Origin: an uncultured Bacteroidales bacterium
GTDB taxonomy: Bacteria > Bacteroidota > Bacteroidia > Bacteroidales > UBA10428
Length of the DNA: 64,000 bases
NCBI GenBank assembly: GCA_964456825.1
Contig: CAYWCR010000005.1
Location: forward strand, 9,305 to 73,304
Direction of reading: 5' to 3'
In this document: piece by piece, positions 941 to 20,805 of the stretch
Position numbering within the stretch: the first letter of the stretch is position 1
Layout: each line of letters opens with the position of its first letter
Program-made: the position numbers and the translations under genes
The notes under the pieces: generated by a model
Database searches by the model: none
What the model was told of the DNA's origin: nothing
The model's input: only the letters and a program-made list of their open reading frames with translations

Positions 941-1001
941 GGAAAAGGACCGTAATCAACAGTAAAATTACATTTTTTGAATTCGTTTTATCAACAATGG
1001 C

Positions 1002-1009
1002 TATTTTTG
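1002..1009 (+). promoter_or_regulatory. Sigma-70 -7 element (TATTTTTG)
   Basis: Exact TAnnTTTG 30 nt before ATG1039; supports 1039 rather than 997 as the start. Confidence 0.55.
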
Positions 1010-1038
1010 TATCGTGGTTTTGTCCTATTCCATTTGCC

Positions 1039-3900
1039 ATGACCTCACATAACCAATTCCTGTTTTTCCTAATTTTACTTACATCTCAGGTGAAAGGGCA
1101 GTTTTTTTCCCAGGGTGAGGATCCTGCATCGGTGAAATGGGAAAAGATCAGGACTGAAAACTTCAGGCTCATCTATCCCAGCGGATTTTATGCCGAGGCC
1201 AACCGTTTTGCCAACCTGCTCGAGTATTACCGGCCTTATACTTCCTATTCGTTGAAAAATATTCCGGGGAAGATCCCCGTGATCATCCATACCCGGTCAG
1301 TGAATTCAAACGCATTTGTTACCTGGGCTCCCCGGCGCATGGAAGTTGTGGCCCTGCCAGGTCAGGACAATTTTGCCCAGGATTGGTTTGAGCATCTTGC
1401 CTTGCATGAATACCGTCATGTTGTTCAGATCGATAAGTTCCATCAGGGAATGACAAAGGGATTATCCTGGATTTTCGGAGAAATGGCAACAGGAGCCGCC
1501 TCTGCCTACATGCCGCAATGGTTTCTGGAGGGAGATGCGGTGGTAAATGAAACGGCTGTTTCTTCAGCCGGAAGAGGCCGTTTGCCTTCTTTTGATATGG
1601 AACTGCGGGCATCCATACTGGATTCGGACAGAAAACTATCCTATGACCAGGCGTTCAATGGATCTTATAAGGTTTTTATACCGGATCATTATCAGTTCGG
1701 TTACCATATGGTCAGCTATGCCCGGATCCGATACGGGTCTGAATTCTGGGAAAAAGCCATCAGTTTTTCAGCGCGGAATCCTTATCTCCTTGCCCCGTTA
1801 AGTTTATACAGCCTCAGGCATACAGGCATGAACCGGGCGCAATTATACAACAAGGCCATGGATTCGGTAAGGATTGTCTGGGACAATAACCTGCGGGATA
1901 TCAGAGAAAGTTATTATTCCAGGGTCATGATAAAGGAAAGCGACGGTTACCGGCAGTACAAATTGCCACAATCCCTGTCGGATAAAAGCTTCATTGCCCT
2001 GAAAACCGGCATTGACCTGCTGGATCAGATAGTCCGTATCGACAGTACCGGAAAAGAAAAGAAATTGATTGAAATAGGATCATCCGATGAACTGAATCTT
2101 TCTGCCGGTGATCACTATATTATCTGGGACGAAATAGTGGGGGATCCACGATGGAGCGGCAGGAGCTATTCGGTTATTAAGTCCTACCATATACCATCAG
2201 CAAGCAAAAAACAGCTGACCCGGAAAACCCGTTATTTTTTACCTGATATTTCAGATGATGAAACTAAAATCGTTGCTGTTGAGACAGATATAGAAAACAA
2301 CAATTTTATAGTCATCCTGCAGAATCCCGGCGGGGAGTTGCTGAAAAGGATTCCTTCACCGGAGAATAAAGTCCTTCAGTTTCCTGCATGGATGAACGGC
2401 GAAGAGGTCGTGCTGGTCACTTTCAACGGAAAAGAGAAATGCATTGAAACGGTAAATATAGAAAACGGTGCATGGAAAATCCTGTTCCATGCAGGCAAAA
2501 TGGATGTGGCAGAGCCAGCGGCATGGCGGCAATATGTTATATTCAGGGCATCCTATAATGGGGTGGAGAACATTTATGCCGTGTACCCGGAAGGCGGCCT
2601 GTACCAGATAACCTCATCAGCCTGGGGGGCATTTCATCCTGCGGTGACCGCTGACAGTGGAAACCTGGTTTATTCCAACTACACTTCCCACGGATTTGAA
2701 CTCGCCATGATACCCCTGGATGCTAAGCGCTGGAAGGCTGTGCAACCCGTTCAGCAATTCGCAAATCCCTGGCCTGAAAAGCTGAAGCAACAGGAAATGA
2801 TGGCTGAAAAACAGTTAAAAAGTGTCTTTCAGCAATATGATGCTGCGCCATACATCAAATCAGCAGGCCTTTTCAAATTTCACAGCTGGCTGCCCTTTTA
2901 TATGGATCTGGATGAGAACAATCTGTCCATTGATTTTCAGACCATCAGACCGGGAGTAATGCTATTTTCACAAAATCTCCTGGGTACGGCATTTTCAACA
3001 CTCAGTTACCGGTACGACAATGGCTACAACATCTTCAGGCCAAGCTTTACATTCAGGGGATGGTATCCGGTATTCAGTTTCACGGCAACATTGGGCGGAC
3101 CGGTAAGCATTTTGCCCTGGCCCGATGATGTTCCATTGCCGGAAATACAGGCATACCAGAAAGTCGTTACCGCAAAAACCTATATTCCGCTGTTCTTTAC
3201 GAATGGAAAGTTCCTGAAAGTTGTTCAACCGCAACTTGAATATGAATGGTCAAATACATTTTATTACAATGGATTATTCAAATCAGGTCTAACCAGGATC
3301 CACGCCAGTTTCTATACCTATCGGTATCTGCGTTCATCACTCAGGGACCTTTACCCGAAGTGGGGCCAATTCCTCTCCCTGACCTACACCGGTACACCTT
3401 CTGATGAAGGTCAGTTCGGAAACCTCTGGACGGCCAGGGCTGATCTCTATTTTCCGGGGATACTGAAGCATCACAGCCTGAGATTCGGTGCAGGGTATCA
3501 GCGGCAACTGCTGCAGCAATTTTACCTGCCGGTCATCCGCATTTCTTTTCCGCGGGGATACAGGAATTATTTCGCCGAAGAATTCATGAAGGTGAGTGCA
3601 AATTACGCTTTCCCCCTGCTGTATCCCGATTTTTCACTGAGCTGGTTACTATACATCAAAAGGATGTCTGCCAATTTGTTTTATGATCTGAGTTACGGGG
3701 TCAATATACAGGAAGTTGAAGAGGACCGGAGAGAATCCTATACCGGAATGTATCATTCAACCGGAGTGGAATTACTGGCCGATATAAACCTGCTCAGGAT
3801 TGTGTTCCCGTTTCGGGCCGGTATACGGTATTCTTATTTACCGATGCTGAATACCCATCATGTTGAAATGCTTTTTACCATCGATACCGACATTTTCTGA
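1039..3900 (+). CDS. Outer-membrane protein: zinc metallopeptidase-like (HExxH) domain + TolB/WD40-like propeller + C-terminal beta-barrel (Omp85-like)
   Basis: Signal peptide MTSHNQFLFFLILLTSQVKG, LHEYRHVVQ and downstream WFLEGDAV, propeller-like repeats (PDIS.DETKIV, HPAVTADSGNLVYSNY), amphipathic strands and a terminal Phe. Confidence 0.7.
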   Translation: MTSHNQFLFFLILLTSQVKGQFFSQGEDPASVKWEKIRTENFRLIYPSGFYAEANRFANLLEYYRPYTSYSLKNIPGKIPVIIHTRSVNSNAFVTWAPRRMEVVALPGQDNFAQDWFEHLALHEYRHVVQIDKFHQGMTKGLSWIFGEMATGAASAYMPQWFLEGDAVVNETAVSSAGRGRLPSFDMELRASILDSDRKLSYDQAFNGSYKVFIPDHYQFGYHMVSYARIRYGSEFWEKAISFSARNPYLLAPLSLYSLRHTGMNRAQLYNKAMDSVRIVWDNNLRDIRESYYSRVMIKESDGYRQYKLPQSLSDKSFIALKTGIDLLDQIVRIDSTGKEKKLIEIGSSDELNLSAGDHYIIWDEIVGDPRWSGRSYSVIKSYHIPSASKKQLTRKTRYFLPDISDDETKIVAVETDIENNNFIVILQNPGGELLKRIPSPENKVLQFPAWMNGEEVVLVTFNGKEKCIETVNIENGAWKILFHAGKMDVAEPAAWRQYVIFRASYNGVENIYAVYPEGGLYQITSSAWGAFHPAVTADSGNLVYSNYTSHGFELAMIPLDAKRWKAVQPVQQFANPWPEKLKQQEMMAEKQLKSVFQQYDAAPYIKSAGLFKFHSWLPFYMDLDENNLSIDFQTIRPGVMLFSQNLLGTAFSTLSYRYDNGYNIFRPSFTFRGWYPVFSFTATLGGPVSILPWPDDVPLPEIQAYQKVVTAKTYIPLFFTNGKFLKVVQPQLEYEWSNTFYYNGLFKSGLTRIHASFYTYRYLRSSLRDLYPKWGQFLSLTYTGTPSDEGQFGNLWTARADLYFPGILKHHSLRFGAGYQRQLLQQFYLPVIRISFPRGYRNYFAEEFMKVSANYAFPLLYPDFSLSWLLYIKRMSANLFYDLSYGVNIQEVEEDRRESYTGMYHSTGVELLADINLLRIVFPFRAGIRYSYLPMLNTHHVEMLFTIDTDIF

Positions 3901-7281: not shown

Positions 7282-7758
7282 ATGGGAAACAGAACGGAAC
7301 GATTGCTGACCATCCGCAATATCATATCTAGCCGGAAGGTATCAAGCCAGGAAGAATTGCTGAGCCTGTTGGAAGATAAGGGGCTGACCTTTACCCAGGC
7401 AACCCTGTCGAGGGACTTGAAGTTCCTGAAAGTGAATAAAATTTCAGACAGTGAAAAGGGATATATCTATGAATTGCCGGATCAGCATAATGCTCCGGGC
7501 CATGAACTGGCCGAGAGTTATGCCGCAAAGGGTTTTGTTTCCATCAAGTTTGCCAATAAGATGGGTGTGATAAGGACCCTTCCGGGATATGCCCCCAGCA
7601 TAGCCTCGCTTATTGACCAGACCAATCCTTTTGAGATCCTGGGGACCCTGGCCGGAGACGATACCATCTTATTGATCCCCCACGAAAATGTGTCGGAACA
7701 GGATATCATCAATACCCTTGTTCTTATCATACCGGAATTAAAGAATAAATTAAAATAA
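7282..7758 (+). CDS. argR: Arginine repressor
   Basis: SSQEELL, TQATLSRDL winged helix, RTLPGYAPSIA, GTLAGDDTIL. Confidence 0.97.
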   Translation: MGNRTERLLTIRNIISSRKVSSQEELLSLLEDKGLTFTQATLSRDLKFLKVNKISDSEKGYIYELPDQHNAPGHELAESYAAKGFVSIKFANKMGVIRTLPGYAPSIASLIDQTNPFEILGTLAGDDTILLIPHENVSEQDIINTLVLIIPELKNKLK

Positions 7759-7773
7759 CCATACAATCACAGC

Positions 7774-9024
7774 ATGAAGGAAAAGAAGAAAAAGGGGAAA
7801 GTTGTGTTGGCCTACAGCGGAGGCCTTGACACATCCGTAATTCTGAAATGGCTTATTGAAAGAGGATATGAAGTGATAGCCTATGTGGCGGATGTTGGAC
7901 AGGATGATGATTTTGCTGCTGTTGAAAAGAAAGCGCTGAAAGTTGGTGCTGCAAAAGTATACATTAAAAATCTGAGGAAAGAATTTGTTACGGATTATAT
8001 ATTCCCGGCCCTGAAGGCAAATGCCATGTATGAAAACCGGTATTTATTGGGTACTGCCCTGGCCAGGCCATTGATCGCAAAGCATCAGATCAGGATTGCG
8101 GAAATGGAAAGGGCCAATATTGTATCGCATGGTGCCACCGGGAAAGGAAATGATCAGGTTCGTTTTGAACTATCCTATTATGCGCTGAACCCGAAAATTA
8201 AGGTCCTTTCTCCCTGGAAAACCCAGGAGTTTCTGGACCAGTTTAAGGGGAGAACCGATATGCTGAATTATGCAAAGCGTCATAATATTCCTGTTAAAGC
8301 CACGGTCTCCAAACCATACAGCGAAGATGACAACCTTATGCACATCAGTCATGAAGCCGGCATTCTTGAAGACCCAAAATACAAGGCAGAAAAGGAAATG
8401 TTCACCAAGATAGTGGCACCACAGGATGCACCCGACAGGGAAACGCATCTTGAAATCCATTTTAAGGACGGACTGCCCGTTAAGGTAGTAAACCGGAAGG
8501 AAAAAATATCGCAGGACAAGCCACTGCCTTTGTATTTGTACCTGAACAAGGTGGGGGGAGAGAACGGGATCGGATTGCTGGACATGGTAGAAAACAGGTT
8601 TGTCGGCATTAAATCCAGGGGTGTCTATGAAACGCCAGCCGGAACCATTCTGTTAAAGGCCCACATGGATATTGAGGGCATAGCCATGGACCGTGAAGTA
8701 ATGCGGTTAAGGAACATGCTTTCGCCGGTTTTTTCAGAACTGGTTTACAATGGTTTCTGGTTCAGTCCCGAAATGGATTTTCTGCGGGCGGCCATTGACA
8801 AAAGCCAGGAAATTATCGATGGCATTGTATACCTGACCCTGTACAAGGGAAATGTTATCATTGACGGGAGAGAATCTCCGAGTTCGCTTTATGACAAGGA
8901 ATTATCGAGTATGGATATCGAGGGCGGATTTGACCAGAAGGACAGTTCGGGATTCATCAAGATCAATGCCATACGGCTGATGGCGCATAATGCAATACTC
9001 AGAAAAAAGGGTAAATCACGCTAG
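7774..9024 (+). CDS. argG: Argininosuccinate synthase
   Basis: [50 protein letters not shown]. Confidence 0.98.
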
Positions 9025-9095: not shown

Positions 9096-10439
9096 ATGAA
9101 GCTTTGGGAAAAGGGAATAAAAACGGATCAATGGGTGGAAAGGTTCACCGTTGGAAAGGACCGGGACATGGACCGGATCCTGGCCCCATATGATGTGCTG
9201 GGATCGCTGGCGCATGCCGCCATGCTAAAACAAACCGGAATCCTGCCTGAAACTGAGTTTCAGGCAATCCGTATTGCATTGACAGCGCTCTATAAGGACA
9301 TTGGCAGGAAAGGCTTTGAAATCGAGGAAGGCATTGAAGATGTTCATTCCCAGGTTGAACTGCTGTTGACGCGGAAACTGGGTGAAGCCGGCAAGCATAT
9401 TCATACAGCCAGGTCAAGAAATGACCAGGTGCTGCTCGACATTAAACTATACATAAGGGATGAGATTCGCCAGGTATCTGAAATAGCGGGCAAATTTTTT
9501 CACAGCCTGCAGCAGCGAAGTGAGGAAACGAAAGAAATATTGCTGCCGGGGTATACCCATTTGCAGGTGGCCATGCCTTCTTCCTTCGGCCTCTGGTTTG
9601 GCGCTTATGCAGAAAGCCTGGTGGATGATATGCAGCTGCTGCTGGCCGCGTACCGCATTGTTAATCAAAATCCGCTTGGTTCTGCTGCGGGTTACGGATC
9701 TTCCTTCCCGATCAACCGGCAGCTCACAACAGACCTGCTTGGATTTGACGCCATGAATTACAATGCTGTCTATGCACAGATGGGCAGGGGAAAAGTTGAA
9801 AAAATTGTGGCATTTGCATTGGCTTCCTTTGCTTCGACATTGTCCAAACTGGCCAGCGATGTCTGTCTTTATGCCAGTCAGAATTTCGGCTTTTTCAGAT
9901 TACCCGATGCCTACACCACGGGGTCAAGCATCATGCCGCATAAAAAGAATCCGGATGTATTCGAACTGATACGGGCCAGGTGCAATAAAATTCAAAGCCT
10001 GCCGAACGAGATCGGATTCCTTGTTAATAATCTGCCTTCAGGCTATTTCCGGGACCTTCAGGTTATCAAAGAATCCTTCCTTCCGGCATTCGATGAACTA
10101 AAAAGCTGTATTGCCATGGCTGATCTGATCACAGGCAAACTGGAAGTTAACCGGCATAGTACAGAAGGGGAATTGTATCAGTATTTATTCAGCGTTGAAG
10201 AAGTGAACAAATTGGTAGACAGCGGTGTTCCTTTCAGGGATGCATACCGGAAAATTGCCCAGGACATCAAAACCGGAAATTATCATCCGGAAAGGATGGT
10301 AAGGCATTCCCATGAAGGCAGCATCGGGAATCTTTGCAATGATAAAATAGCGTTGCGCATGAAAAGGATCTTACAGGAATTCAACTTCCGGAAAACAGAT
10401 ATAGCCATTAAAGCATTGCTGCAATATGGAAAAAAGTAA
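9096..10439 (+). CDS. argH: Argininosuccinate lyase
   Basis: HTARSRNDQV, LPGYTHLQVAMP, GSSIMPHKKNPD signature. Confidence 0.97.
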   Translation: MKLWEKGIKTDQWVERFTVGKDRDMDRILAPYDVLGSLAHAAMLKQTGILPETEFQAIRIALTALYKDIGRKGFEIEEGIEDVHSQVELLLTRKLGEAGKHIHTARSRNDQVLLDIKLYIRDEIRQVSEIAGKFFHSLQQRSEETKEILLPGYTHLQVAMPSSFGLWFGAYAESLVDDMQLLLAAYRIVNQNPLGSAAGYGSSFPINRQLTTDLLGFDAMNYNAVYAQMGRGKVEKIVAFALASFASTLSKLASDVCLYASQNFGFFRLPDAYTTGSSIMPHKKNPDVFELIRARCNKIQSLPNEIGFLVNNLPSGYFRDLQVIKESFLPAFDELKSCIAMADLITGKLEVNRHSTEGELYQYLFSVEEVNKLVDSGVPFRDAYRKIAQDIKTGNYHPERMVRHSHEGSIGNLCNDKIALRMKRILQEFNFRKTDIAIKALLQYGKK

Positions 10440-11118
10440 ACGTCAGTTCCGTATCGTAGTGCGGATTGAAATGGCCACCCTCATCAACCGGGACGGAAAA
10501 ATAAACCGGAAGAAAATGGACCGGCTCGCCATGGTATTATCGAACCTGAACAATAGCGGAAAACAAATTATGGTGGTTACTTCCGGCGCTATTGTGCTGG
10601 GCTCAGAGAAACTCAATCTTTCATCCATGCCCGGCTCAAAATTGGATATGCAGGCCACGGCAGCCGTTGGCCAGGTTGAACTCATCCGGTCATATCAGCG
10701 ATTTTTTGATGAGTATGGTCAGATAGTAGCCCAGGTGCTGGTTACAAGCGATATTGTTGAATATCCATCCCGCATTGAAAACACCCGCAACACATTTGAT
10801 ATGCTGTTGTCTATGAACATTATACCCATTGTCAATGAAAATGACCCTGTTTCAACTACGGATATTGAGCTGGATGATAATTACCCCCTGGCCCTGAAAG
10901 TTGCCAATATCGCAAGGGCTGATTTCATTGTCATAAAGTCAGCGACCAACGGTTATTATTGTATTGTTCAGGGCAATGGCAAGCCGGCTGTTGAGGTTGA
11001 AAATGAAATAACGCTTCAGGAGAAAATAGAAGAATTATGTAAGGGCATTACCCCGGCCCGGTTGGATTCATCCGGTATCGTATTCCCTGTGTCGATGGAA
11101 GAAATCTGTCCCCGTTAA
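10426..11118 (+). CDS. Degenerate glutamate 5-kinase paralogue (probable pseudokinase, ProB*)
   Basis: Colinear with the adjacent ProB over about 164 aa (VTSGAI, AAVGQ, NEND kept). VVKIGTS is VVRIEMA, GDND is DDNY, and the SDIDG and TGGM.TK motifs are absent. Confidence 0.85.
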   Translation: MEKSKRQFRIVVRIEMATLINRDGKINRKKMDRLAMVLSNLNNSGKQIMVVTSGAIVLGSEKLNLSSMPGSKLDMQATAAVGQVELIRSYQRFFDEYGQIVAQVLVTSDIVEYPSRIENTRNTFDMLLSMNIIPIVNENDPVSTTDIELDDNYPLALKVANIARADFIVIKSATNGYYCIVQGNGKPAVEVENEITLQEKIEELCKGITPARLDSSGIVFPVSMEEICPR

Positions 11119-11129
11119 CGACTGGTGTT

Positions 11130-11948
11130 ATGGAATTCAGAAAAATACTGAGAAATAAAAAAAGGATCGTTGTTAAAATAGGCACATCCACGTTGTCCTT
11201 CGAGAATGGAAGGATAAACTTTCATCGCCTTGAAAAGCTGGCGGATGTATTAAGCACTTTGCGCAAAAAGGGAATTCAGGTTGTGCTGGTCACATCAGGG
11301 GCTATCGGTGTTGGTGCAGCCAGAATCGGAATGACACAGAAGCCCAGGGAACTGAACCTGAAACAGGCATTGGCAGCTATTGGCCAGGCCGAGCTTATGA
11401 AAATGTACCAGAAATTTTTTGAAGAACATAATCAGCTGGTAGCGCAGGTTTTGTTAACCAAGGATGTGGTCACCATTCACCGGCGCAACCAGCATGCCAG
11501 GAGAACCCTTGACCGTTTGCTCGATATGGGGATCATCCCTATCATCAACGAGAATGATACCATTGCCACCTATGAAATTGAATTTGGCGATAATGATTCC
11601 TTGTCGGCCATCGTAGCAACGCTGATTGAAGCTGATTTGCTGGTCATCCTCTCGGATATTGACGGATTGTATTCAGCAGACCCCAGGATGGAAACTTCTG
11701 CCGAGATTATCCATTCGGTATTTGAGATTACACCTGAGCTTGAGCAATTGGCTTCGGGTGCAGGCAGTTCCTTCAGCACGGGCGGGATGGTTACCAAAAT
11801 CGCCGCGGCCAAAATGTGCATGCAGGCAGGACTGGATTGCATTATCACCAATGGATCAGAACCTGCGGTAATTTTTGACATACTGGAAGGCAAAAAGGTC
11901 GGTACCCACTTTGTTGCCGGCCAGCAACATATTATTAACCATGCATGA
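11130..11948 (+). CDS. proB: Glutamate 5-kinase (short form, no PUA domain)
   Basis: IVVKIGTSTL, VTSGAI, INENDT, EFGDNDSL, SDIDGL, TGGMVTK. Confidence 0.97.
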   Translation: MEFRKILRNKKRIVVKIGTSTLSFENGRINFHRLEKLADVLSTLRKKGIQVVLVTSGAIGVGAARIGMTQKPRELNLKQALAAIGQAELMKMYQKFFEEHNQLVAQVLLTKDVVTIHRRNQHARRTLDRLLDMGIIPIINENDTIATYEIEFGDNDSLSAIVATLIEADLLVILSDIDGLYSADPRMETSAEIIHSVFEITPELEQLASGAGSSFSTGGMVTKIAAAKMCMQAGLDCIITNGSEPAVIFDILEGKKVGTHFVAGQQHIINHA

Positions 11949-13206
11949 TCAGTCTATGAAATCAGGGATACTGGAAAAGGGAAAAAATGTTAAGAAGGCT
12001 TCCCGGATACTGGCTGTTGCCAATACGGCCCTTAAGGATAAAGCCCTGCTATTGATCGCGGAAGAAATTGAAAAGAACCGCGAAGCCATCAGGTCAGCCA
12101 ACAGCAAGGACCTCCGGGCCGGTGTGAAAAAAGGCCTTTCGGCTGCCTTTATCGACAGGCTCACCCTGGATGACAAACGCATTGACGGCATGGTTAAAAT
12201 ATTGCATGATGTGGTCAACCTGAAGGACCCTGTTGGTGAGATTTTCAATATGAATACCATGCCTAACGGATTAAAGGTCGGCCAGATGCGGGTTCCCATC
12301 GGTGTGATCGGCATTATCTTTGAATCCCGTCCGAATGTTTGCATAGAAGTGGCCTCACTGACGGTAAAATCAGGTAACGCAGCGCTTTTAAAAGGAGGAT
12401 CAGATGCCATTCATTCCAACATCTGCCTTACCCGCATAATTAAAAAGGGTTTGTTGAATGCAGGTTTGCCGGAAAGTTGTATCGAGATCATTGATAATAC
12501 AAGCCGGGAATCGGTGCTGGAAATGGTTAAAATGAAGGAATATATTGATGTTATCATTCCCAGGGGAGGACTTCAGTTGATACGCTTTGTGGAAGAAAAT
12601 TCGGTAATACCCGTCATCCGGCATGATCAGGGAATATGCCATACCTATGTTGACGAGTTTGCCAGCCTGCAGATGGCCTTGAGTATTTGCCTCAATGCCA
12701 AAGCCCAGCGTCCGGGCGTATGCAATGCCATGGAGACCTTGCTGGTGCATTCGGAAATTGCCCCGGTTTTTTTACCCATGATGGAGAAGGAATATAAAAA
12801 GGCAGGCGTAAAATTAAAGGGATGCAACAAAACAAAAATGATCCTGCCGGATATTCAGGACGCAACGGAAGAGGACTGGAAGACAGAATACCTCGACCTG
12901 ATCCTGGCTGTTAAAATAGTGGACAGCCTTGAGGAGGCCGTTGCCCATATTAATGAATACAGCTCGCATCATTCGGATTCCATTGTAACGGATCATTATG
13001 GCCAGGGCATGCGGTTTATAACCGAAGTCGATTCGGCAGCCTGTTTCATTAATGCTTCCACCCGCTTCAGCGACGGGAATGAATTCGGCCTCGGAGCAGA
13101 AATGGGCATCAGCAATCAAAAACTACATGTTCGGGGGCCTATGGGTCTGAAAGACCTTACGGCTCCGAAATATATTATTTTCGGTAATGGACAGATAAGA
13201 GTTTAG
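11941..13206 (+). CDS. proA: Gamma-glutamyl phosphate reductase
   Basis: VPIGVIGIIFESRPNV, KGGSDA, CNAMETLLVH, NASTRFSDGNEFGLGAEMGIS. Start at 11941 (or 11956) overlaps the proB stop. Confidence 0.97.
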   Translation: MHDQSMKSGILEKGKNVKKASRILAVANTALKDKALLLIAEEIEKNREAIRSANSKDLRAGVKKGLSAAFIDRLTLDDKRIDGMVKILHDVVNLKDPVGEIFNMNTMPNGLKVGQMRVPIGVIGIIFESRPNVCIEVASLTVKSGNAALLKGGSDAIHSNICLTRIIKKGLLNAGLPESCIEIIDNTSRESVLEMVKMKEYIDVIIPRGGLQLIRFVEENSVIPVIRHDQGICHTYVDEFASLQMALSICLNAKAQRPGVCNAMETLLVHSEIAPVFLPMMEKEYKKAGVKLKGCNKTKMILPDIQDATEEDWKTEYLDLILAVKIVDSLEEAVAHINEYSSHHSDSIVTDHYGQGMRFITEVDSAACFINASTRFSDGNEFGLGAEMGISNQKLHVRGPMGLKDLTAPKYIIFGNGQIRV

Positions 13207-13233: not shown

Positions 13234-14577
13234 ATGAATGATATCCTGCAAAAACTGGAGACCTTAACCATCAAGGCTTCCGAGATTGACAAGGGACTCT
13301 TTGAAAAATTTAACGTAAAACGCGGACTTCGCAATCCGGACGGAACAGGAGTTCTTGTCGGCCTTACCAACATCGGCGATGTTGTGGGATATGAAAAACA
13401 GGGAGATAAAATAATACCCTGTGACGGCCGCCTTTTTTACCGGGGAATTGAAATTACCGAACTGGTGAATGGTTTTCAGAAAGATCACCGGCATGGATTT
13501 GATGAATCGGTATATTTATTGCTGACCGGAAGTCTGCCAAGCAAAGAAAACCTTGACATGTTTTCATCCTATCTGGTCGGCCATCGTGACCTGCCGAACA
13601 GCTTCGTTAACCTGATCCTTTCCTTCCGGGGGAAGAATATCATGAATATGCTGGCACGGTCTGTCCTGGTTATGTATACCATGGATGACGATGTAGAAAA
13701 TTACTCCCATATCAACCTGCTGAAGCAATCCCTTACCCTGATCGCCAAGTTCCCGATCATTGCCTCTTATATCTTTTTTAGCTTCAGGCATACCTATCAG
13801 CGGAAATCATTAATATTCAGGCATCCGGATCCGGCCCTCAGCACCGCTGAGAACTTCCTGTACATGCTGAAAGGTGAGGGATATTCCAGGCTGGAGGCAG
13901 ATATCCTTGATCTTTCGCTGGTGCTGCACGCTGAGCACGGAGGTGGTAACAATTCAACCTTTGCAACCCGCGTAATCAGTTCAGCCGGCACGGATACCTA
14001 TTCTGCCATTGCAGCCGGCCTCGGATCCCTGAAAGGCTATCTCCATGGCGGTGCGAACCTTCAGGTGGAAGAAATGATGCGGGATATCAAGAAAAATGTA
14101 AAGGACTGGAATAACCAGGAAGAGATCCTTGACTACCTGATAAAAATATTGCAGGGACAAGCCGGAGACGGTTCAGGCAAGATATATGGCATTGGGCATG
14201 CCATCTATACATTGTCTGATCCGCGCGCTATTTTACTAAAGGAAAAGGCAAAGGAACTGGCTGAATCCAAGGGAAAACTGGATGAGTACAATCTTTACGA
14301 AAGTGTTGAAAAACTCGCACCCGAAGCTTTTGCACGGTTCAAGGGTGATAATGCGAAGGTTGTCAGCGCCAATGTTGACTTCTACTCGGGATTTGTATAC
14401 AAATGCATCGATATTCCCAAGGAGTTGTTCACCCCTATTTTTGCCGTGGCCAGAATGGCTGGCTGGTGTGCTCACCGGCTTGAAGAGGTTACCTTTTCTT
14501 CTCGGCGCATCATTCGTCCGGCCTATCGCAATGTTTTTGGCAGGGTGGATTATGAAGATCTGGAAGAAAGAGCATAA
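13234..14577 (+). CDS. gltA: Citrate synthase (citrate/2-methylcitrate synthase family)
   Basis: LHAEHGGGNNST, LHGGAN, YGIGHAIY..SDPRA, ANVDFYSG, ARMAGWCAH. Confidence 0.93.
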   Translation: MNDILQKLETLTIKASEIDKGLFEKFNVKRGLRNPDGTGVLVGLTNIGDVVGYEKQGDKIIPCDGRLFYRGIEITELVNGFQKDHRHGFDESVYLLLTGSLPSKENLDMFSSYLVGHRDLPNSFVNLILSFRGKNIMNMLARSVLVMYTMDDDVENYSHINLLKQSLTLIAKFPIIASYIFFSFRHTYQRKSLIFRHPDPALSTAENFLYMLKGEGYSRLEADILDLSLVLHAEHGGGNNSTFATRVISSAGTDTYSAIAAGLGSLKGYLHGGANLQVEEMMRDIKKNVKDWNNQEEILDYLIKILQGQAGDGSGKIYGIGHAIYTLSDPRAILLKEKAKELAESKGKLDEYNLYESVEKLAPEAFARFKGDNAKVVSANVDFYSGFVYKCIDIPKELFTPIFAVARMAGWCAHRLEEVTFSSRRIIRPAYRNVFGRVDYEDLEERA

Positions 14578-14590
14578 TTTTTATTAGTCA

Positions 14591-14605
14591 CCCTATAAAA
14601 TAGGG
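14591..14605. terminator. Short hairpin after gltA (possible weak terminator)
   Basis: CCCTAT-AAA-ATAGGG in AT-rich flanks; only 6 bp and no contiguous U-tract. Confidence 0.3.
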
Positions 14606-14634
14606 ATATTGTTTTAAAATATACTATTTTTTAT

Positions 14635-14642
14635 TACATTTG
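14635..14642 (+). promoter_or_regulatory. Sigma-70 -7 element (TACATTTG) of the gltBD leader
   Basis: Exact TAnnTTTG, with a TTG at about 14609-14611 as a possible -33 element; 23 nt before the leader ATG. Confidence 0.7.
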
Positions 14643-14665
14643 CCCTATCTGTTTTATAGGTTAAA

Positions 14666-14716
14666 ATGATTTTTAAAGATTTTAATAATAAGGATATTGC
14701 ATTTCAACAGGGTTGA
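14666..14716 (+). CDS. Putative gltBD leader peptide MIFKDFNNKDIAFQQG*
   Basis: ATG in A-rich context (TTAAAATG), tandem Asn and tandem Gln (CAA CAG) codons; the stop TGA is the start of the antiterminator 5' strand. Confidence 0.65.
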   Translation: MIFKDFNNKDIAFQQG

Positions 14717-14776
14717 GAATGGTATCATTATAAATTCAGGCAAAAGCCATTCTCATTACCCGGGAATGGCTTTTTT
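14714..14776 (+). terminator. Attenuator: mutually exclusive antiterminator and intrinsic terminator
   Basis: TGAGAATGG (14714-14722) pairs with CCATTCTCA (14747-14755). Alternatively AAAAGCCATTC (14742-14752) pairs with GAATGGCTTTT (14764-14774), with a U6 tract at 14771-14776. Confidence 0.75.
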
Positions 14777-14803
14777 GATTGGGTTAAGAAAAAATAATGA
14801 TTT

Positions 14804-17800
14804 ATGATAAGCAGGAGATTGCCAAAGGCACAGGGGCTGTATGATCCCTCAGAGGAAAAAGACAGTTGCGGTATCGGCTTCGTTGCGCATATCAAAGGGA
14901 TCAAGTCACATGAAATTATCAGCAGGGGAATAGAAGTCCTGGAGAATATGTCACACCGTGGTGCGGAAAGTGCTGATAATGTGACCGGCGACGGAGCCGG
15001 AATATTAATGCAGATTCCGCATAAATTGATCTTATCCAGGGGCATCAACGTTCCGGATGAGGGCAGTTACGGAACAGGTCTGGTTTTTTTGCCCAGGGGA
15101 CAGGATGAAAGGGAACAATGCGAAAAGATACTGACCGGGATCCTTGTGGCGGAGGGACTTGATGTAATACATTTTCAGGATGTCCAGGTCGATAATTCAG
15201 TGCTCGGGGAAATATCCAGCAGTTCTGAACCCTTCATCCGACAGATATATGTTACCGGAAATCATGAGCAGGATGAAATGGAAAGAAGGCTCTACATCTC
15301 CCGGAAAATGGCTGAAAACACGATCAGAAGTTCGGCCCTGAAAGATAGGGAAGCCTTTTATATTCCCAGCCTGTCAACCAAGGTTCTCATCTACAAGGGA
15401 TTGTTCACATCCCTTCAACTGGCGCAATATTTCACCGATCTGAAAAATCCCGCCATGGAAAGCGCTATTGCCATGATTCATTCGCGGTTCAGTACCAACA
15501 CTTTCCCGACATGGGATCTGGCACAGCCCTTCAGGTTTCTCTCCCACAATGGCGAGATCAATACCATCAGCAGCAACCGCATGTGGATGAATGCCCGCGA
15601 ATCGCTCATGAAAACTGAACTGTTCGGGGAAGACCTGAAGAAATTGTTCCCGGTCATAGAGCCCGGCAAAAGTGATTCGGCCTCGCTGGACAATGCGCTG
15701 GAGTTTCTGGTGCTGACGGGGAAATCATTGCCGCATGCCCTCAGCATGCTGATCCCGGAATCGTGGAATGACAAAAACCCTATTCCTGACAGCCTTAAGG
15801 CGTTTTATGAATACCACTCTACCATCATGGAGCCCTGGGACGGGCCTGCCTCGATAGTGTTCAGCGACGGACGGTATATCGGGGGTACCCTGGACAGGAA
15901 TGGACTGCGTCCCTCACGCTATATCATCACCAAAGACGACATGATCGTTATGGGGTCGGAGGTCGGCGTGCAAATCTTTCCTCCGGAGAAAATCCGTGAG
16001 AAAGGCCGGCTCATGCCGGGAAAGATTCTCCTGGTGGATACAAAATTCGGCATCATTGTGCCTGACGATGAGTTAAAAAGGCAGCTGACGGGACGGAATC
16101 CTTATGGCAACTGGCTGAAGGAAAACCGGATTGATCTGAATGATATTGTGGTAAAAGAAAGGATTCCCACCAGTCTCGGTGACCGGTTTGACCAATACCT
16201 GAGGGTATTCGGATATACAAAGGAAGATATTGATATTGTCATGAAACCCATGGCCAGGGAAGGGCAGGAACCCGTCAATTCCATGGGAAATGATACACCC
16301 CTTGCTGTCATGTCGGATAAGCCGCAACGCCTGTTCAGCTATTTCCGGCAGCATTTTGCCCAGGTTACCAATCCGCCTGTCGATCCCATTCGTGAAGGGC
16401 TGGTCATGTCGCTGACCAATTATATCGGATCGGTTTCCCGAAACTTGCTTATCGAATCCCCTGCCCATTGCAAACTGATTAAGTTCCGAAGTCCCATTGT
16501 CACCAATACGGATCTGGGGAAAATAAAAAACCTCGACCAGGGCCAGTTCTCCCATGAGGTCATTCCTATTCTGTTCCCTGCCACCGGCCATAATCCAGGA
16601 AAAGCCCTTGAAAAAGCCCTGGATGAGATTTGCCGGAAAGCTGAAAAGGCAGTGGACAACGGGCGCAATTTTATTGTCCTCTCCGACAGGGATATGAATG
16701 AAAAAATGGTGCCCATACCCTCCATCCTGGCTGTTTCTGCCGTTCATCACCACCTGATTGCAGTCAAAAAAAGAATGCAGATTGGTTTGATACTGGAATC
16801 TGCTGAACCCAGGGAAGTGAACCACTTTGCTTTGTTGTTCGCTTACGGGGCCAGTATTGTCAATCCATACGGAGCATTTTCCATCCTGGAGAAATATTGC
16901 GAGAGCGGCGATATTCAGCACGATTATGTGAAAGCCCGGGAGAATTATATCAAGGCAATAGACAAGGGATTGCTGAAAGTTATGTCTAAAATGGGCATTT
17001 CCACCCTCAGGAGTTATCTGGGATCACAGATTTTTGAGGCCATCGGAATTTCAACCGGTGTGATCAACCGGTATTTTACCGGGACCGACTCAAGGATTGA
17101 AGGCATCGGCCTGGAAGAAATAGCCAAAGAAGCCATGATGCCGCATCAGCACGCTTTTGAAAAAAATAGTCTGGAAGCAGAGAGTCTGCACAGTGAAGGC
17201 GTATATCATTACCGGACAGGCGGGGAGTATCATGCCTGGAATCCGGATACCATCGGATTGCTGCAGTGGTCAACACATACCAATGACTATGCAAAATACA
17301 GGGAATTCAGCGCTCAGGTCGATGCTGAAAACCGACGTCCTCATTTTATACGGGGCTGTGTGAATATCAAAAAGGGGAAATCAGTTCCCATTGAGGAAGT
17401 TGAACCGGTTGAATCCATCATGAAACGTTTCGTCACCGGCGCCATGTCGTATGGTTCCATCAGCAAGGAAGCCCATGAAGCCATGGCAATTGCCATGAAC
17501 TCCATTGGAGGAAGAAGCAACACCGGTGAAGGAGGGGAGGATTCAGAACGGTTTAAACCAAGAGAGGACGGTACCTTTGCCCGCAGCGCCATCAAACAGG
17601 TGGCTTCCGGGCGTTTTGGTGTCACAGCCCATTATCTTGTCAATGCCGATGAGCTTCAGATCAAGGTTGCCCAGGGGGCCAAGCCGGGAGAAGGGGGTCA
17701 GCTGCCGGGATATAAAATTGACAGGATCATTGCAAAATTAAGGCATTCCACACCCGGAATAACCCTTATCTCACCACCTCCGCATCATGATATCTATTCC

Positions 17801-19348
17801 ATAGAGGACCTGGCACAGCTTATTTTTGATCTTAAATGCACCAATCCGGGCGCCCGCATCAGTGTCAAACTGGTCTCGGAAAAAGGTGTCGGCACCATTG
17901 CGGCCGGAGTTGCCAAGGCGCATGCTGACGGCATTACCATCAGCGGATGCGAGGGAGGAACCGGGGCAAGTCCGCTCAGTTCCATTAAACATGCAGGATT
18001 GCCTATGGAATTGGGCATCTCGGAAGTGCAGCAGACCCTGGTGATGAACAACCTGCGTGACCGGGTCAGGCTGCAAACAGACGGACAGCTGAAAACCGGC
18101 CGGGATGTTATTTATGCCGGATTGCTGGGAGCGGAAGAATTCGGATTCGCTACAGCCGCCCTGATCGTTCTGGGTTGCATCATGATGCGAAAATGCCATC
18201 TCAACACCTGTCCGGTAGGCGTGGCAACGCAGAATCCGGAACTTCGCAAGCGGTTTCTGGGAAAATCAGCCTACCTGGTCAATTATTTCCGGTTTGTTGC
18301 CCAGGAGGTAAGGGAAATGCTCGCGGAAATGGGATTTCGTTCCTTCGATGAAATCGTTGGCCGGACCGACATGCTGGAACAGCGTAAGGATATATCGCAC
18401 TGGAAGGCAAGCAAAATAGACCTGTCCAGGATCCTTTTCCGCCCGAAAGAGGCTGACAACCATGCAACCCGATGCATATGCCTGCAGCAGCACAAAATTG
18501 AGGAGGTCATGGATCATGAACTCATAGCGCTTTCCAACAAGGCCATCAAGAATCAGGAAAAGGTCTGGATTTCCAGGGATATCACCAATACTGACCGCAC
18601 TGTCGGGGCCATGCTGTCCGGTGAAATAACCCGCATATATGGCGAAGCTGCCCTTCCCGACAGCACCATAATATGCAAATTCAAAGGCTCAGCCGGACAA
18701 TCCTTTGGCGCATTTCTGGTAAAAGGTATTCAGTTTGAAATGGAAGGTGATACCAATGATTATCTGGGCAAAGGATTATCCGGAGGCCGGATCATTGTGG
18801 TTCCACCCAAAGGATCCACCTTCAGGCCGGAAGAAAACATAATAGTCGGCAATACCATTCTGTATGGCGCTACAAGTGGTGAAGCTTATATCAGGGGCGT
18901 CGCAGGCGGCCGGTTCTGTGTGAGAAACAGCGGTGCCATTGCGGTTGTTGAAGGGGTCGGCGATCATGGCTGCGAATACATGACCGGCGGCAGGGTTGTG
19001 GTGCTGGGTAAGACCGGCAGGAATTTCGCAGCTGGCATGAGTGGCGGTATTGCATACATACTGGATAAGGAGGGCAATTTTGATTATTTCTGCAATAAAG
19101 GCATGGTTGAGTTATCTCCGGTTGGTGATAAGGATGACCTTATGGAATTGCAGCAGATGATCAGTAACCATTATCTCTATTCACGAAGTGAACTTGCAGA
19201 AAGGATACTGGTGAACTGGAACGAATACCTGCCCAAATTCATCAAAGTGATACCGCTGGAATATAAGAAAGTGCTTGAAGAACAAAAAATATCCCAGCTG
19301 CTTGAAAAAATCAAACAGACGGAAGACGAACCGCATTTTCACTATTAG
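14804..19348 (+). CDS. gltB: Glutamate synthase large subunit
   Basis: DSCGIGF (Ntn Cys), HSRFSTNT, EPWDGPA, KVAQGAKPGEGGQL, CIMMRKCHLNTCPVGVATQ, GXGXG C-terminal repeats. Confidence 0.98.
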   Translation: MISRRLPKAQGLYDPSEEKDSCGIGFVAHIKGIKSHEIISRGIEVLENMSHRGAESADNVTGDGAGILMQIPHKLILSRGINVPDEGSYGTGLVFLPRGQDEREQCEKILTGILVAEGLDVIHFQDVQVDNSVLGEISSSSEPFIRQIYVTGNHEQDEMERRLYISRKMAENTIRSSALKDREAFYIPSLSTKVLIYKGLFTSLQLAQYFTDLKNPAMESAIAMIHSRFSTNTFPTWDLAQPFRFLSHNGEINTISSNRMWMNARESLMKTELFGEDLKKLFPVIEPGKSDSASLDNALEFLVLTGKSLPHALSMLIPESWNDKNPIPDSLKAFYEYHSTIMEPWDGPASIVFSDGRYIGGTLDRNGLRPSRYIITKDDMIVMGSEVGVQIFPPEKIREKGRLMPGKILLVDTKFGIIVPDDELKRQLTGRNPYGNWLKENRIDLNDIVVKERIPTSLGDRFDQYLRVFGYTKEDIDIVMKPMAREGQEPVNSMGNDTPLAVMSDKPQRLFSYFRQHFAQVTNPPVDPIREGLVMSLTNYIGSVSRNLLIESPAHCKLIKFRSPIVTNTDLGKIKNLDQGQFSHEVIPILFPATGHNPGKALEKALDEICRKAEKAVDNGRNFIVLSDRDMNEKMVPIPSILAVSAVHHHLIAVKKRMQIGLILESAEPREVNHFALLFAYGASIVNPYGAFSILEKYCESGDIQHDYVKARENYIKAIDKGLLKVMSKMGISTLRSYLGSQIFEAIGISTGVINRYFTGTDSRIEGIGLEEIAKEAMMPHQHAFEKNSLEAESLHSEGVYHYRTGGEYHAWNPDTIGLLQWSTHTNDYAKYREFSAQVDAENRRPHFIRGCVNIKKGKSVPIEEVEPVESIMKRFVTGAMSYGSISKEAHEAMAIAMNSIGGRSNTGEGGEDSERFKPREDGTFARSAIKQVASGRFGVTAHYLVNADELQIKVAQGAKPGEGGQLPGYKIDRIIAKLRHSTPGITLISPPPHHDIYSIEDLAQLIFDLKCTNPGARISVKLVSEKGVGTIAAGVAKAHADGITISGCEGGTGASPLSSIKHAGLPMELGISEVQQTLVMNNLRDRVRLQTDGQLKTGRDVIYAGLLGAEEFGFATAALIVLGCIMMRKCHLNTCPVGVATQNPELRKRFLGKSAYLVNYFRFVAQEVREMLAEMGFRSFDEIVGRTDMLEQRKDISHWKASKIDLSRILFRPKEADNHATRCICLQQHKIEEVMDHELIALSNKAIKNQEKVWISRDITNTDRTVGAMLSGEITRIYGEAALPDSTIICKFKGSAGQSFGAFLVKGIQFEMEGDTNDYLGKGLSGGRIIVVPPKGSTFRPEENIIVGNTILYGATSGEAYIRGVAGGRFCVRNSGAIAVVEGVGDHGCEYMTGGRVVVLGKTGRNFAAGMSGGIAYILDKEGNFDYFCNKGMVELSPVGDKDDLMELQQMISNHYLYSRSELAERILVNWNEYLPKFIKVIPLEYKKVLEEQKISQLLEKIKQTEDEPHFHY

Positions 19349-19383
19349 GATCAATCCAAGCTAACCATTAACATAACACGGAT

Positions 19384-20805
19384 ATGGGAAACCCAAAAGG
19401 ATTTATGCTGATACCCAGAAAGGCGGCAGGATATCGCCCCCTCAATGAACGCATTGATGACTTTGGTGAAGTTGAGCAAACGCTGAATGAACAGGACAGG
19501 AAAGATCAGGCTTCCCGTTGCATGGACTGCGGAGTACCCTTTTGTCAGTGGGGATGCCCAGTCATGAATAATATGCCGGAATGGCAGGATGCCATTTATC
19601 GCGGTAACTGGAAAGAGGCTGTTGATCTGCTTCATATTACCAATAATTTTCCTGAATTCACCGGACGTATCTGTCCGGCCCCCTGCGAAAACGCCTGCAC
19701 CCTTAATATTCACGAAGAACCGGTTACCATTCGTGAGAATGAAGCCGCAGTAGCCGAAAAAGGATTCGAACTGGGCTATATTGTACCCAGGCCGCCCCTG
19801 GTAAGAACCGGCAAAAAGGTGGCTGTGGTCGGATCGGGTCCTTCGGGACTGGCATGCGCTGATTTGTTAAACCAGTGGGGCCATACGGTTACGGTTTTCG
19901 AGAAAGATGAGGCTCCGGGCGGATTGCTCAGGTTTGGCATTCCCGATTTCAAACTGAACAAGAAAGTAATTGACCGCCGTCTTGAGGTGCTGCAGCAGGA
20001 AGGCCTTCATTTTAAGACCAACACCCTCGTAGGGTATGATGTTAAGGGAACAGACATGCTGAAGGAATTTGATGCCGTATGCCTTACCATTGGAGCCATG
20101 AAGCCGCGGGATCTGCAGGCCGAAGGCAGAGAGCTGACCGGAATTCATTTTGCCATGGATTTTCTGACTCAGCAGAATAAAGTAAACCGGGGCATGCATA
20201 TCGGCGAAGCTGAGCGGATAACAGCAGCCGGCAAAAATGTCGTGGTCATTGGTGGCGGAGATACCGGCTCAGACTGCGTGGGGACATCAATACGCCAGGG
20301 GGCAAAAAGCATCACCCAGATAGAGATACTGCCCAAACCACCGGCACGGCGCAATCCGGATAACCCATGGCCTTTCTGGGCAAATGTTCTGCGGTATTCA
20401 AGCTCGCATGACGAAGGATGCGACCGGAAATGGAGCCTTTCAACCAAAAGATTTACCGGAGAAAATGGCAGGGTAAGAAAAATAGAAATGGCGGAGGTAG
20501 ACTGGGTAAAGTCAGCGGGAAAATTTACCATGATGGAAAAGCCAAACACGGATAAGGTGATGGATGCTGAACTTGTTTTGCTTGCCATGGGTTTTGTTCA
20601 TTGCATGCATGAAGGAATTGTCAGGGAGCTGGAACTGGAACTCGATGTAAGAGGCAACATAAAAATAAATCCGGGCTTTCAAACCAGCCAGCAGAAGGTT
20701 TTTGCCGCAGGTGATTCGGTAACGGGAGCGAGCCTGGTTGTCAGGGCCATTTTCCAGGGCAGAAACCTTGCCAAGGCTGTCAATACTTTCCTGAATGCTC
20801 CGTAG
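19384..20805 (+). CDS. gltD: Glutamate synthase small subunit
   Basis: RCMDCGVPFC, NNFPEFTGRICPAPCE, GSGPSGLA, GGGDTGSDC, VFAAGD. Confidence 0.97.
   Translation: MGNPKGFMLIPRKAAGYRPLNERIDDFGEVEQTLNEQDRKDQASRCMDCGVPFCQWGCPVMNNMPEWQDAIYRGNWKEAVDLLHITNNFPEFTGRICPAPCENACTLNIHEEPVTIRENEAAVAEKGFELGYIVPRPPLVRTGKKVAVVGSGPSGLACADLLNQWGHTVTVFEKDEAPGGLLRFGIPDFKLNKKVIDRRLEVLQQEGLHFKTNTLVGYDVKGTDMLKEFDAVCLTIGAMKPRDLQAEGRELTGIHFAMDFLTQQNKVNRGMHIGEAERITAAGKNVVVIGGGDTGSDCVGTSIRQGAKSITQIEILPKPPARRNPDNPWPFWANVLRYSSSHDEGCDRKWSLSTKRFTGENGRVRKIEMAEVDWVKSAGKFTMMEKPNTDKVMDAELVLLAMGFVHCMHEGIVRELELELDVRGNIKINPGFQTSQQKVFAAGDSVTGASLVVRAIFQGRNLAKAVNTFLNAP

Follow-up and report, generated by a model that had tools for sequence, protein, structure and literature searches.

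A selectively maintained, non-catalytic paralogue of glutamate 5-kinase encoded beside proB in uncultured Bacteroidales, a candidate regulatory partner of the enzyme

The proB* locus and its product

We analysed a 64,000-nucleotide stretch of DNA from an uncultured Bacteroidales bacterium of sediment (assembly GCA_964456825.1, contig CAYWCR010000005.1), hereafter the window, whose positions are used throughout. Its subject is proB* ("star" in gene orders), a gene encoding a catalytically degenerate paralogue of glutamate 5-kinase (G5K, ProB) and lying directly upstream of an intact proB. The original prediction, made from the sequence alone, placed here a 230-aa open reading frame (ORF) overlapping the stop of argH and ending 11 nt before proB; the coordinates agree, and the overlap with argH measures 14 nt. 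The elements of the gene pair are as follows (Ec, Escherichia coli numbering).

10426..11118, + strand: proB*, 230 aa, ATG start, an uninterrupted ORF for a catalytically degenerate glutamate 5-kinase paralogue
10426..10953, + strand: N-lobe of ProB* (residues 1-176), which in the G5K fold binds the amino acid
10462..10476, + strand: R13-I-E15-M-A17, standing where ProB has its K-x-G-T-S phosphate-binding loop; the catalytic Lys is gone and an acidic residue is present
10582..10593, + strand: S53-G54-A55-I56, corresponding to Ec S50-G51-A52-I53, the backbone that binds the ligand alpha-carboxylate (role according to bioRxiv 10.1101/2024.09.19.614007)
10834..10884, + strand: N137-E-N-D140 through D150-D-N-Y153, ligand amino-group binders and lid/regulatory loop (Ec E135-N149)
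10954..11115, + strand: C-terminal stub of ProB* (residues 177-230), what is left of the ATP-binding lobe after a shortening of about 40 aa relative to ProB
11119..11129, + strand: spacer of 11 nt between the proB* stop and the proB start
11130..11948, + strand: proB, ATG at 11130, 272 aa, an intact glutamate 5-kinase without a PUA domain, the presumed partner

ProB* is clearly a homologue of the protein encoded next to it, with 39% identity over 225 aa (BLASTP, E=1e-52), and G5K is its best sequence match (E ~1e-36). The gapless alignment that had been estimated by hand at about 164 aa and 45% identity came out, when computed, at 76 identical residues of 164 (46.3%; ProB* residues 9-172). Among Pfam families, PF00696 (AA_kinase) was matched at 43.2 bits (cut-off 24.9), limited to residues 26-176 of ProB* and to positions 17-177 of the 234 of the profile. 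On the TIGR01027 proB equivalog model, ProB* reached 159.5 bits, below the cut-off of 186, and covered only model positions 2-172 of 363, while the adjoining ProB scored 313 bits. No other Pfam domain was above cut-off, and there was no fusion to a GNAT domain of the type found in NAGS; ProB* is thus a single-domain protein. Its GC content, GC3 and codon composition are like those of the neighbouring genes.

The motif changes read by eye in the original prediction were all recovered. Indeed, the motifs described as retained (VTSGAI, AAVGQ, AQVL, IIPI.NEND, here IIPIVNEND, and DN) were all found in ProB*, and KIGTS is replaced by RIEMA, GDND by DDNY and SDIDG by SATNG, with GGMVTK absent. The C-lobe described as divergent is also much shorter, with 54 aa past residue 176 against 93 in ProB.

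Residues lost and residues kept

The residue comparison was carried out between 16 deep ProB* representatives and 54 ProBs, in E. coli numbering. The elements of phosphoryl transfer are lost across the whole ProB* family. The position of K10 is variable (R/K/S/M/N/G/Q/E/V; R13 in the window protein), G12 is substituted, mostly by Glu, and the position of S14 is variable; an acidic residue stands at G12 or T13 in all 16 ProB* sequences and in none of the 54 ProBs. G147 is replaced by E, D or N in 13 of the 16, and E143 by Asp in every one of them. D150 is Tyr in 16/16 deep members (Y153 in the window protein) and in 115 of 117 shallow members, the other two having Phe. The position of D170 is variable, the GGM.TK/K217 element is deleted, and the C-terminal stub, lacking both, is conserved only at F220-P221. 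The window protein thus has neither the K10, K217 and D150 residues of a G5K nor its K-x-G-[TS]-[ST], [ST]-D-x-x-G and G-G-M-x-T-K motifs. The family has invariants of its own (Y153, D146, Q91, N43 and P221), and the mean local charge at the former phosphate site is −2.0 in ProB* versus −0.9 in ProB, which further has K217. Judged from these residues, the ATP-binding and phosphoryl-transfer half of the protein is abolished and its remnant is more acidic; by its sequence ProB* cannot be a kinase, and the annotation "glutamate 5-kinase" carried by some of its members is, on the same grounds, wrong.

Conversely, the half of the protein that holds the amino acid is kept. G51, A52, N134, E135, N136, D137 and N149 are invariant in the ProB* family and are shared with the ProBs, and the window protein has the residues that bind the alpha-groups of the ligand (G54, A55, I56, N137 and D140). 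Other positions common to both groups are V48, G56, P66, Q100, L102, N116, T120, P131 and L152, as well as a face of the long helix (Q73, A76, A77, G79, Q80, L83, W/Y87 and F91). The lid loop (Ec E135-N149) has the same length in ProB* and ProB and is highly conserved. In the cryo-EM structures of the E. coli enzyme, the imino group of proline pairs with D137 and its carboxylate is hydrogen-bonded by G51, A52, I53 and N134; the alpha-groups of glutamate are bound likewise, with the E135-N149 loop closing above either ligand (bioRxiv 10.1101/2024.09.19.614007). Since G51, A52, N134 and D137, which bind proline and glutamate in these structures, are among the invariant residues, the amino-acid pocket and its lid are preserved in ProB*. 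The selective loss proposed in the original prediction, in which catalytic elements go and amino-acid-site residues stay, therefore extends from the single protein of the window to the family.

The predicted structure has the same division. The AlphaFold2 (AF2) model of ProB*, built from a family alignment of 41 sequences, had a pLDDT of 84 and a pTM of 0.85, with values of 55-68 (pLDDT) at the C-terminal end. The top matches in the PDB (Foldseek) were the G5K structures 8zpj, 2j5t, 4q1t, 2w21 and 2ako. About 166 N-lobe columns superposed on the E. coli, Burkholderia and Campylobacter enzymes at 2.8-3.5 A (TMq 0.64), and the C-lobe of the model is a short stub without superposition on G5K.

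Family, selection and linkage to proB

More than 120 clusters of ProB* orthologues, 224-231 aa long and with 60-100% identity, were obtained from a search covering 5.8 billion proteins. All of them came from metagenome assemblies of Bacteroidales or Bacteroidota, and they bore the name "glutamate 5-kinase" or "hypothetical protein". A profile search of 1.84 billion representatives was topped by about 24 degenerate representatives, 16 of them full length, with true ProBs starting from about 198 bits. A metagenome scan for the pattern IPI[IV]NEND found mostly true ProBs and added four new ProB* loci only. All the named carriers of ProB* are Bacteroidales or Bacteroidota.

In a neighbour-joining tree of the 16 ProB*, the 54 ProBs and the E. 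coli protein, the ProB* clade was monophyletic (200/200 bootstraps) and nested next to its partners in the genome, the Bacteroidota ProBs without a PUA domain. This position indicates that ProB* derives from one old duplication of a local, PUA-less Bacteroidota proB.

The gene is under purifying selection. Compared with the two closest loci, proB* had dN/dS (omega) values of 0.075 and 0.088, the same loci giving 0.08 for argH, 0.074 for proA and 0.049 for proB; with dS between 1.2 and 1.8, these ratios are approximate. By lobe, omega was 0.04-0.06 for the N-lobe (residues 1-176) and 0.25-0.33 for the C-terminal stub. Two short metatranscriptome contigs map to proB*, and one of them spans 10982-11129 with 0 mismatches, weak evidence that the gene is transcribed. 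Maintenance under purifying selection had been expected from the sequence of the window, and missing or frameshifted orthologues with a dN/dS near 1 had been named as what would overturn it; the orthologues are many and intact, with an omega of about 0.08, similar to that of argH and proA. We conclude from these sequence comparisons that ProB* is a selectively maintained, non-catalytic paralogue of G5K. The contrary view, that it is a decaying duplicate or a spurious ORF, could appeal to its being shorter than ProB and to the relaxed evolution of the stub; it is refuted by hundreds of intact orthologues, by the omega values, overall and by lobe, by an old monophyletic clade with its own invariants, and by a codon composition like that of the neighbours.

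Among 19 resolved lineages (15 paired and four stand-alone, with L029 left out of the tally), proB follows proB* directly in 15, with the proB* stop lying -4 to +34 nt from the proB ATG. The tight coupling that had been noticed at a single locus is thus repeated with changing outer neighbours. The pair occurs in at least four otherwise different wider contexts:

carB(-) | argR argG argH star proB proA citrate-synthase gltB, in the window clade (L001-L005, L105 and L106)
argH-star-proB-phosphoribosyltransferase, in L014-16
star-proB-proA, in L018-20
ValRS-star-proB-proA, in L021-23, from 3.7-Mb genomes
star-proB, in L013, L009, L024 and L025

The overlap between argH and proB* also recurs in L001-L003 and L106. 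Since deep members have star-proB-proA or ValRS-star-proB-proA and lack argH, the adjacency to argH is lineage-specific. The ProB of the window has the full set of KGTS, GDND, SD and GGM.TK motifs, and all ProB partners of ProB* are PUA-less and complete, with no sign of degeneration.

In the window, the genes on either side of the pair are the following.

7282..9024, + strand: argR and argG, head of the same-strand cluster, with synteny in L001-L005, L105 and L106
9096..10439, + strand: argH, argininosuccinate lyase (Lyase_1), its last 14 nt overlapping the start of proB*
11956..13206, + strand: proA, glutamate-5-semialdehyde dehydrogenase, 416 aa from the ATG at 11956 (NF001221, 592 bits)

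The mechanical ORF of proA (11875-13206) has a TTG start and a 74-nt overlap with proB, with the profile match beginning at residue 28; as the orthologues in L105 and L106 are 416 aa long, translation most likely begins at the ATG at 11956, which lies 7 nt past the stop of proB. After proA, on the same strand (13234-20805), lie citrate synthase and gltB and gltD, the large and small subunits of glutamate synthase (GOGAT). The order arg-pro-citrate synthase-GOGAT, a glutamate supply-and-use supercluster with argR at its head, is kept in L001, L004, L005, L105 and L106. A promoter and terminator scan, of a kind not informative for Bacteroidota, gave no terminator between argH, proB* and proB.

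The stand-alone members have neighbourhoods of their own. Three of them (L008:4900-5592, L017:6001-6690 and L104:5001-5696) form a subclade with E-E-E or Q-E-E-K at the phosphate loop and E-N-N-Y at the GDND position; here proB* is divergent from a gene for a 7TMR-HDED/7TM-HD protein (a PgpH-like HD phosphohydrolase), followed by Lactamase_B and GAF-hemerythrin genes. In L010:1400-3415 (also in L011 and L012), the gene that lies 67 nt downstream of the stand-alone member P0132 encodes a 412-aa AAA_21 ATPase.

As regards distribution, ProB* was seen only in sediment, soil, wetland, bioreactor and other environmental assemblies, and the human-gut loci fetched have a PUA-less proB and no twin (L045, L049, L054, L066, L068, L073, L075, L079, L082, L090 and L099); this may be an ecological pattern.

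Gene fusions of another kind were also met. The long "fusions" of the profile search turned out to be ProB joined to unrelated domains (YbeY, DnaN, AlaRS and ABC), probably artefacts of gene calling or assembly. In a Bacteroidales metagenome-assembled genome from horse faeces (L007:4464-6023), an uninterrupted 520-aa ORF contains pyrroline-5-carboxylate reductase (F420_oxidored and P5CR_dimer) and a complete ProB, an apparent ProC-ProB fusion followed by proA.

Elsewhere in the window, a 967-aa ORF (997-3900, + strand) downstream of where carB ends on the minus strand had no Pfam match at E<=1e-5. The 512-aa protein of 25748-27286 matches all three domains of GH3 (acyl-acid amido synthetase), a family best known from plants.

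Proposed role and relation to known systems

G5K is the feedback-controlled entry of proline synthesis. It is a target in the metabolic engineering of proline overproducers, and its homologue P5CS is a disease gene in humans. Taking the lost and retained elements together with the linkage to proB, we regard ProB* as probably a non-catalytic partner or sensor of the genuine enzyme, of a kind so far undescribed. The specific form that we favour, with a probability of about one half, is a non-catalytic, ligand-sensing ProB subunit or modulator that tunes G5K activity or its feedback inhibition. After one old duplication of the PUA-less proB, the copy would have lost ATP binding and phosphoryl transfer and kept the N-lobe amino-acid pocket with its lid loop. 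ProB* and ProB would be made together from a translationally coupled gene pair, and ProB* could replace a ProB protomer, or dock on ProB, adding a regulatory amino-acid site; in this way it may tune activity or feedback at the first committed step of proline synthesis. G5Ks form dimers and tetramers, and the ligand-induced movements of lid loop and long helix pass between subunits (bioRxiv 10.1101/2024.09.19.614007). As the enzyme is oligomeric and these movements cross subunits, the substitution of a protomer, or docking on ProB, would be the most economical arrangement. We infer here that ProB* would bind an amino acid and would bind ProB, and the direction of its effect likewise. Proline is the simplest candidate as a ligand, because Tyr153 narrows the pocket, which then suits a compact molecule; given the acidified former phosphate site, the ligand may also be a basic amino acid.

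Several observations weigh against this proposal. Four lineages (L008, L010, L017 and L104) have ProB* without a proB within several kb, and the 469 amino-acid-kinase proteins and ORFs searched included no natural fusion of ProB* with ProB. The partner ProBs show no obvious compensatory change: six positions are mildly biased (R59, I78, L121, I139, F209 and C224), all lying outside the catalytic and lid motifs, and the bias probably reflects phylogeny. ProB* is dispensed with by many Bacteroidota ProBs that lack a PUA domain, those of 11/11 human-gut loci fetched among them, and is therefore accessory and not required. The AF2 model was confident in just two of five models, and the conservation of NEND and SGA could partly be structural rather than a ligand-binding constraint. 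As most PUA-less Bacteroidota ProBs lack the twin, a general role of ProB* as a "PUA substitute" was rejected and survives only as a minor sub-hypothesis.

Among the alternatives, the one that fares best, although unlikely, is that ProB* is a free-standing amino-acid-binding protein with a target other than ProB (ProA, for example, or a transporter or signalling protein), so that only shared regulation would link it to proB. The four stand-alone lineages, three of which share another conserved neighbourhood, are consistent with it, as are the unchanged partner ProBs and the missing fusion. Conversely, the spacing of -4 to +34 nt and the fixed gene order persist across very divergent lineages, as is more typical of subunits than of genes that are loosely co-regulated; oligomerisation is obligate in proteins of the G5K fold, and conservation in ProB* is highest in the N-lobe.

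It is rather improbable that ProB* works independently of any ligand, as a structural "prozyme" that stabilises, activates or caps ProB or mimics a fixed allosteric state. With Glu/Asp in the phosphate loop and Tyr at D150, the pocket could be filled and held in a single conformation, and activators that are dead paralogues are known elsewhere, such as the prozyme of trypanosomatid AdoMetDC; the invariant holders of the ligand's alpha-amino and alpha-carboxylate groups and the lid loop would be hard to explain without a ligand.

Slightly more doubtful is an obligate ProB/ProB* hetero-oligomer in which the acidified pocket would bind ornithine or arginine, and no longer glutamate or proline, giving cross-control between the routes from glutamate to proline and to arginine. 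What can be cited for a basic ligand is the remodelled pocket, in which the former phosphate loop has Glu/Asp, G147 has become Asp/Glu/Asn and D150 an invariant Tyr. A rewiring of feedback to arginine or ornithine had been suggested in the original prediction; the case for it comes from this acidified site, the adjacency to argH being confined to one clade.

A neo-functionalised enzyme, with an ATP-independent chemistry or handling glutamyl-5-phosphate, 5-oxoproline or an ornithine-related compound, is improbable too, although the family's own invariants (Y153, D146, Q91, N43 and P221) and the very strong constraint on the N-lobe speak for it. There is no obvious new catalytic constellation, an acyl-phosphate is disfavoured by an acidified pocket that has neither of the two lysines and no Gly-rich loop, and we know of no precedent for an enzyme of this kind in the amino-acid-kinase family.

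Very improbable is an active kinase with unconventional catalytic residues, a second G5K isozyme like ProJ of Bacillus: the name given to some members in databases and the conservative R13 for K10 in the window clade are outweighed by a K10 not conserved in the family, the absence of D150, D170 and GGM.TK/K217, about 40 missing residues of the ATP lobe and a score below the equivalog cut-off.

The original prediction knew of no description of such a subunit, and our literature search, with most subscription journals outside its coverage, likewise found no earlier description of ProB*. To our knowledge, all the regulation of G5K known so far resides within the catalytic polypeptide (the substrate/proline pocket, the lid loop and the PUA domain). 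If the proposed role is true, a separately encoded dead twin regulating the proB product would be a new regulatory layer for the proline step, and ProB* a new bacterial example of a pseudoenzyme paralogue that controls its active sibling. If instead the hetero-oligomer with a basic ligand were true, neither the amino-acid-kinase family nor proline biosynthesis would have had a "prozyme"-type regulator before it. Recognising ProB* corrects the annotation and the pathway reconstructions of many Bacteroidota assemblies.

Compared with G5K itself (ProB, EC 2.7.2.11; E. coli 2J5T and 8ZPJ, Campylobacter jejuni 2AKO), ProB* has the same fold and ancestry, the N-lobe, the alpha-group binders and the lid loop, whereas the catalytic Lys pair, organising Asp, Gly-rich loop and ATP-lobe motifs are all missing from it; it is about 40 aa shorter and forms a separate clade. 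Two G5K paralogues per genome are also present in Bacillus subtilis, where ProB and ProJ reportedly serve the anabolic and the osmoadaptive routes to proline; both are catalytic, unlike ProB*.

Dead paralogues that regulate or complete their enzyme include the trypanosomatid AdoMetDC prozyme, HisZ with short-form HisG, and pseudo-dihydroorotase with ATCase. As in ProB*, the dead paralogue is selected and is co-encoded or co-occurs with a minimal active enzyme. Indeed, ProB* combines catalytic loss with purifying selection, and co-occurs with the active enzyme in 15/19 lineages. Fold and pathway differ, and for ProB* the heteromer and the regulation are proposals.

The PUA domain of long-form G5K is a non-catalytic accessory module, as ProB* may be, with a fold unrelated to that of ProB*. 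It strengthens the feedback by proline by stabilising the E135-N149 loop of the neighbouring subunit, and in the Y352A/Y354A mutant the I50 rises about 15-fold (bioRxiv 10.1101/2024.09.19.614007).

The closest functional likeness is that with the amino-acid-kinase domain of NAGS, a precedent for ProB* as a non-catalytic amino-acid site built on this fold. This domain is a non-phosphorylating allosteric arginine site, and the yeast NAGS-NAGK metabolon is a complex with an active kinase (PMC5146650). In NAGS the dead domain is fused to the GNAT catalytic domain, whereas ProB* is a separate polypeptide. Moreover, NAGS binds arginine away from the substrate pocket, while ProB* keeps the substrate/inhibitor pocket itself.

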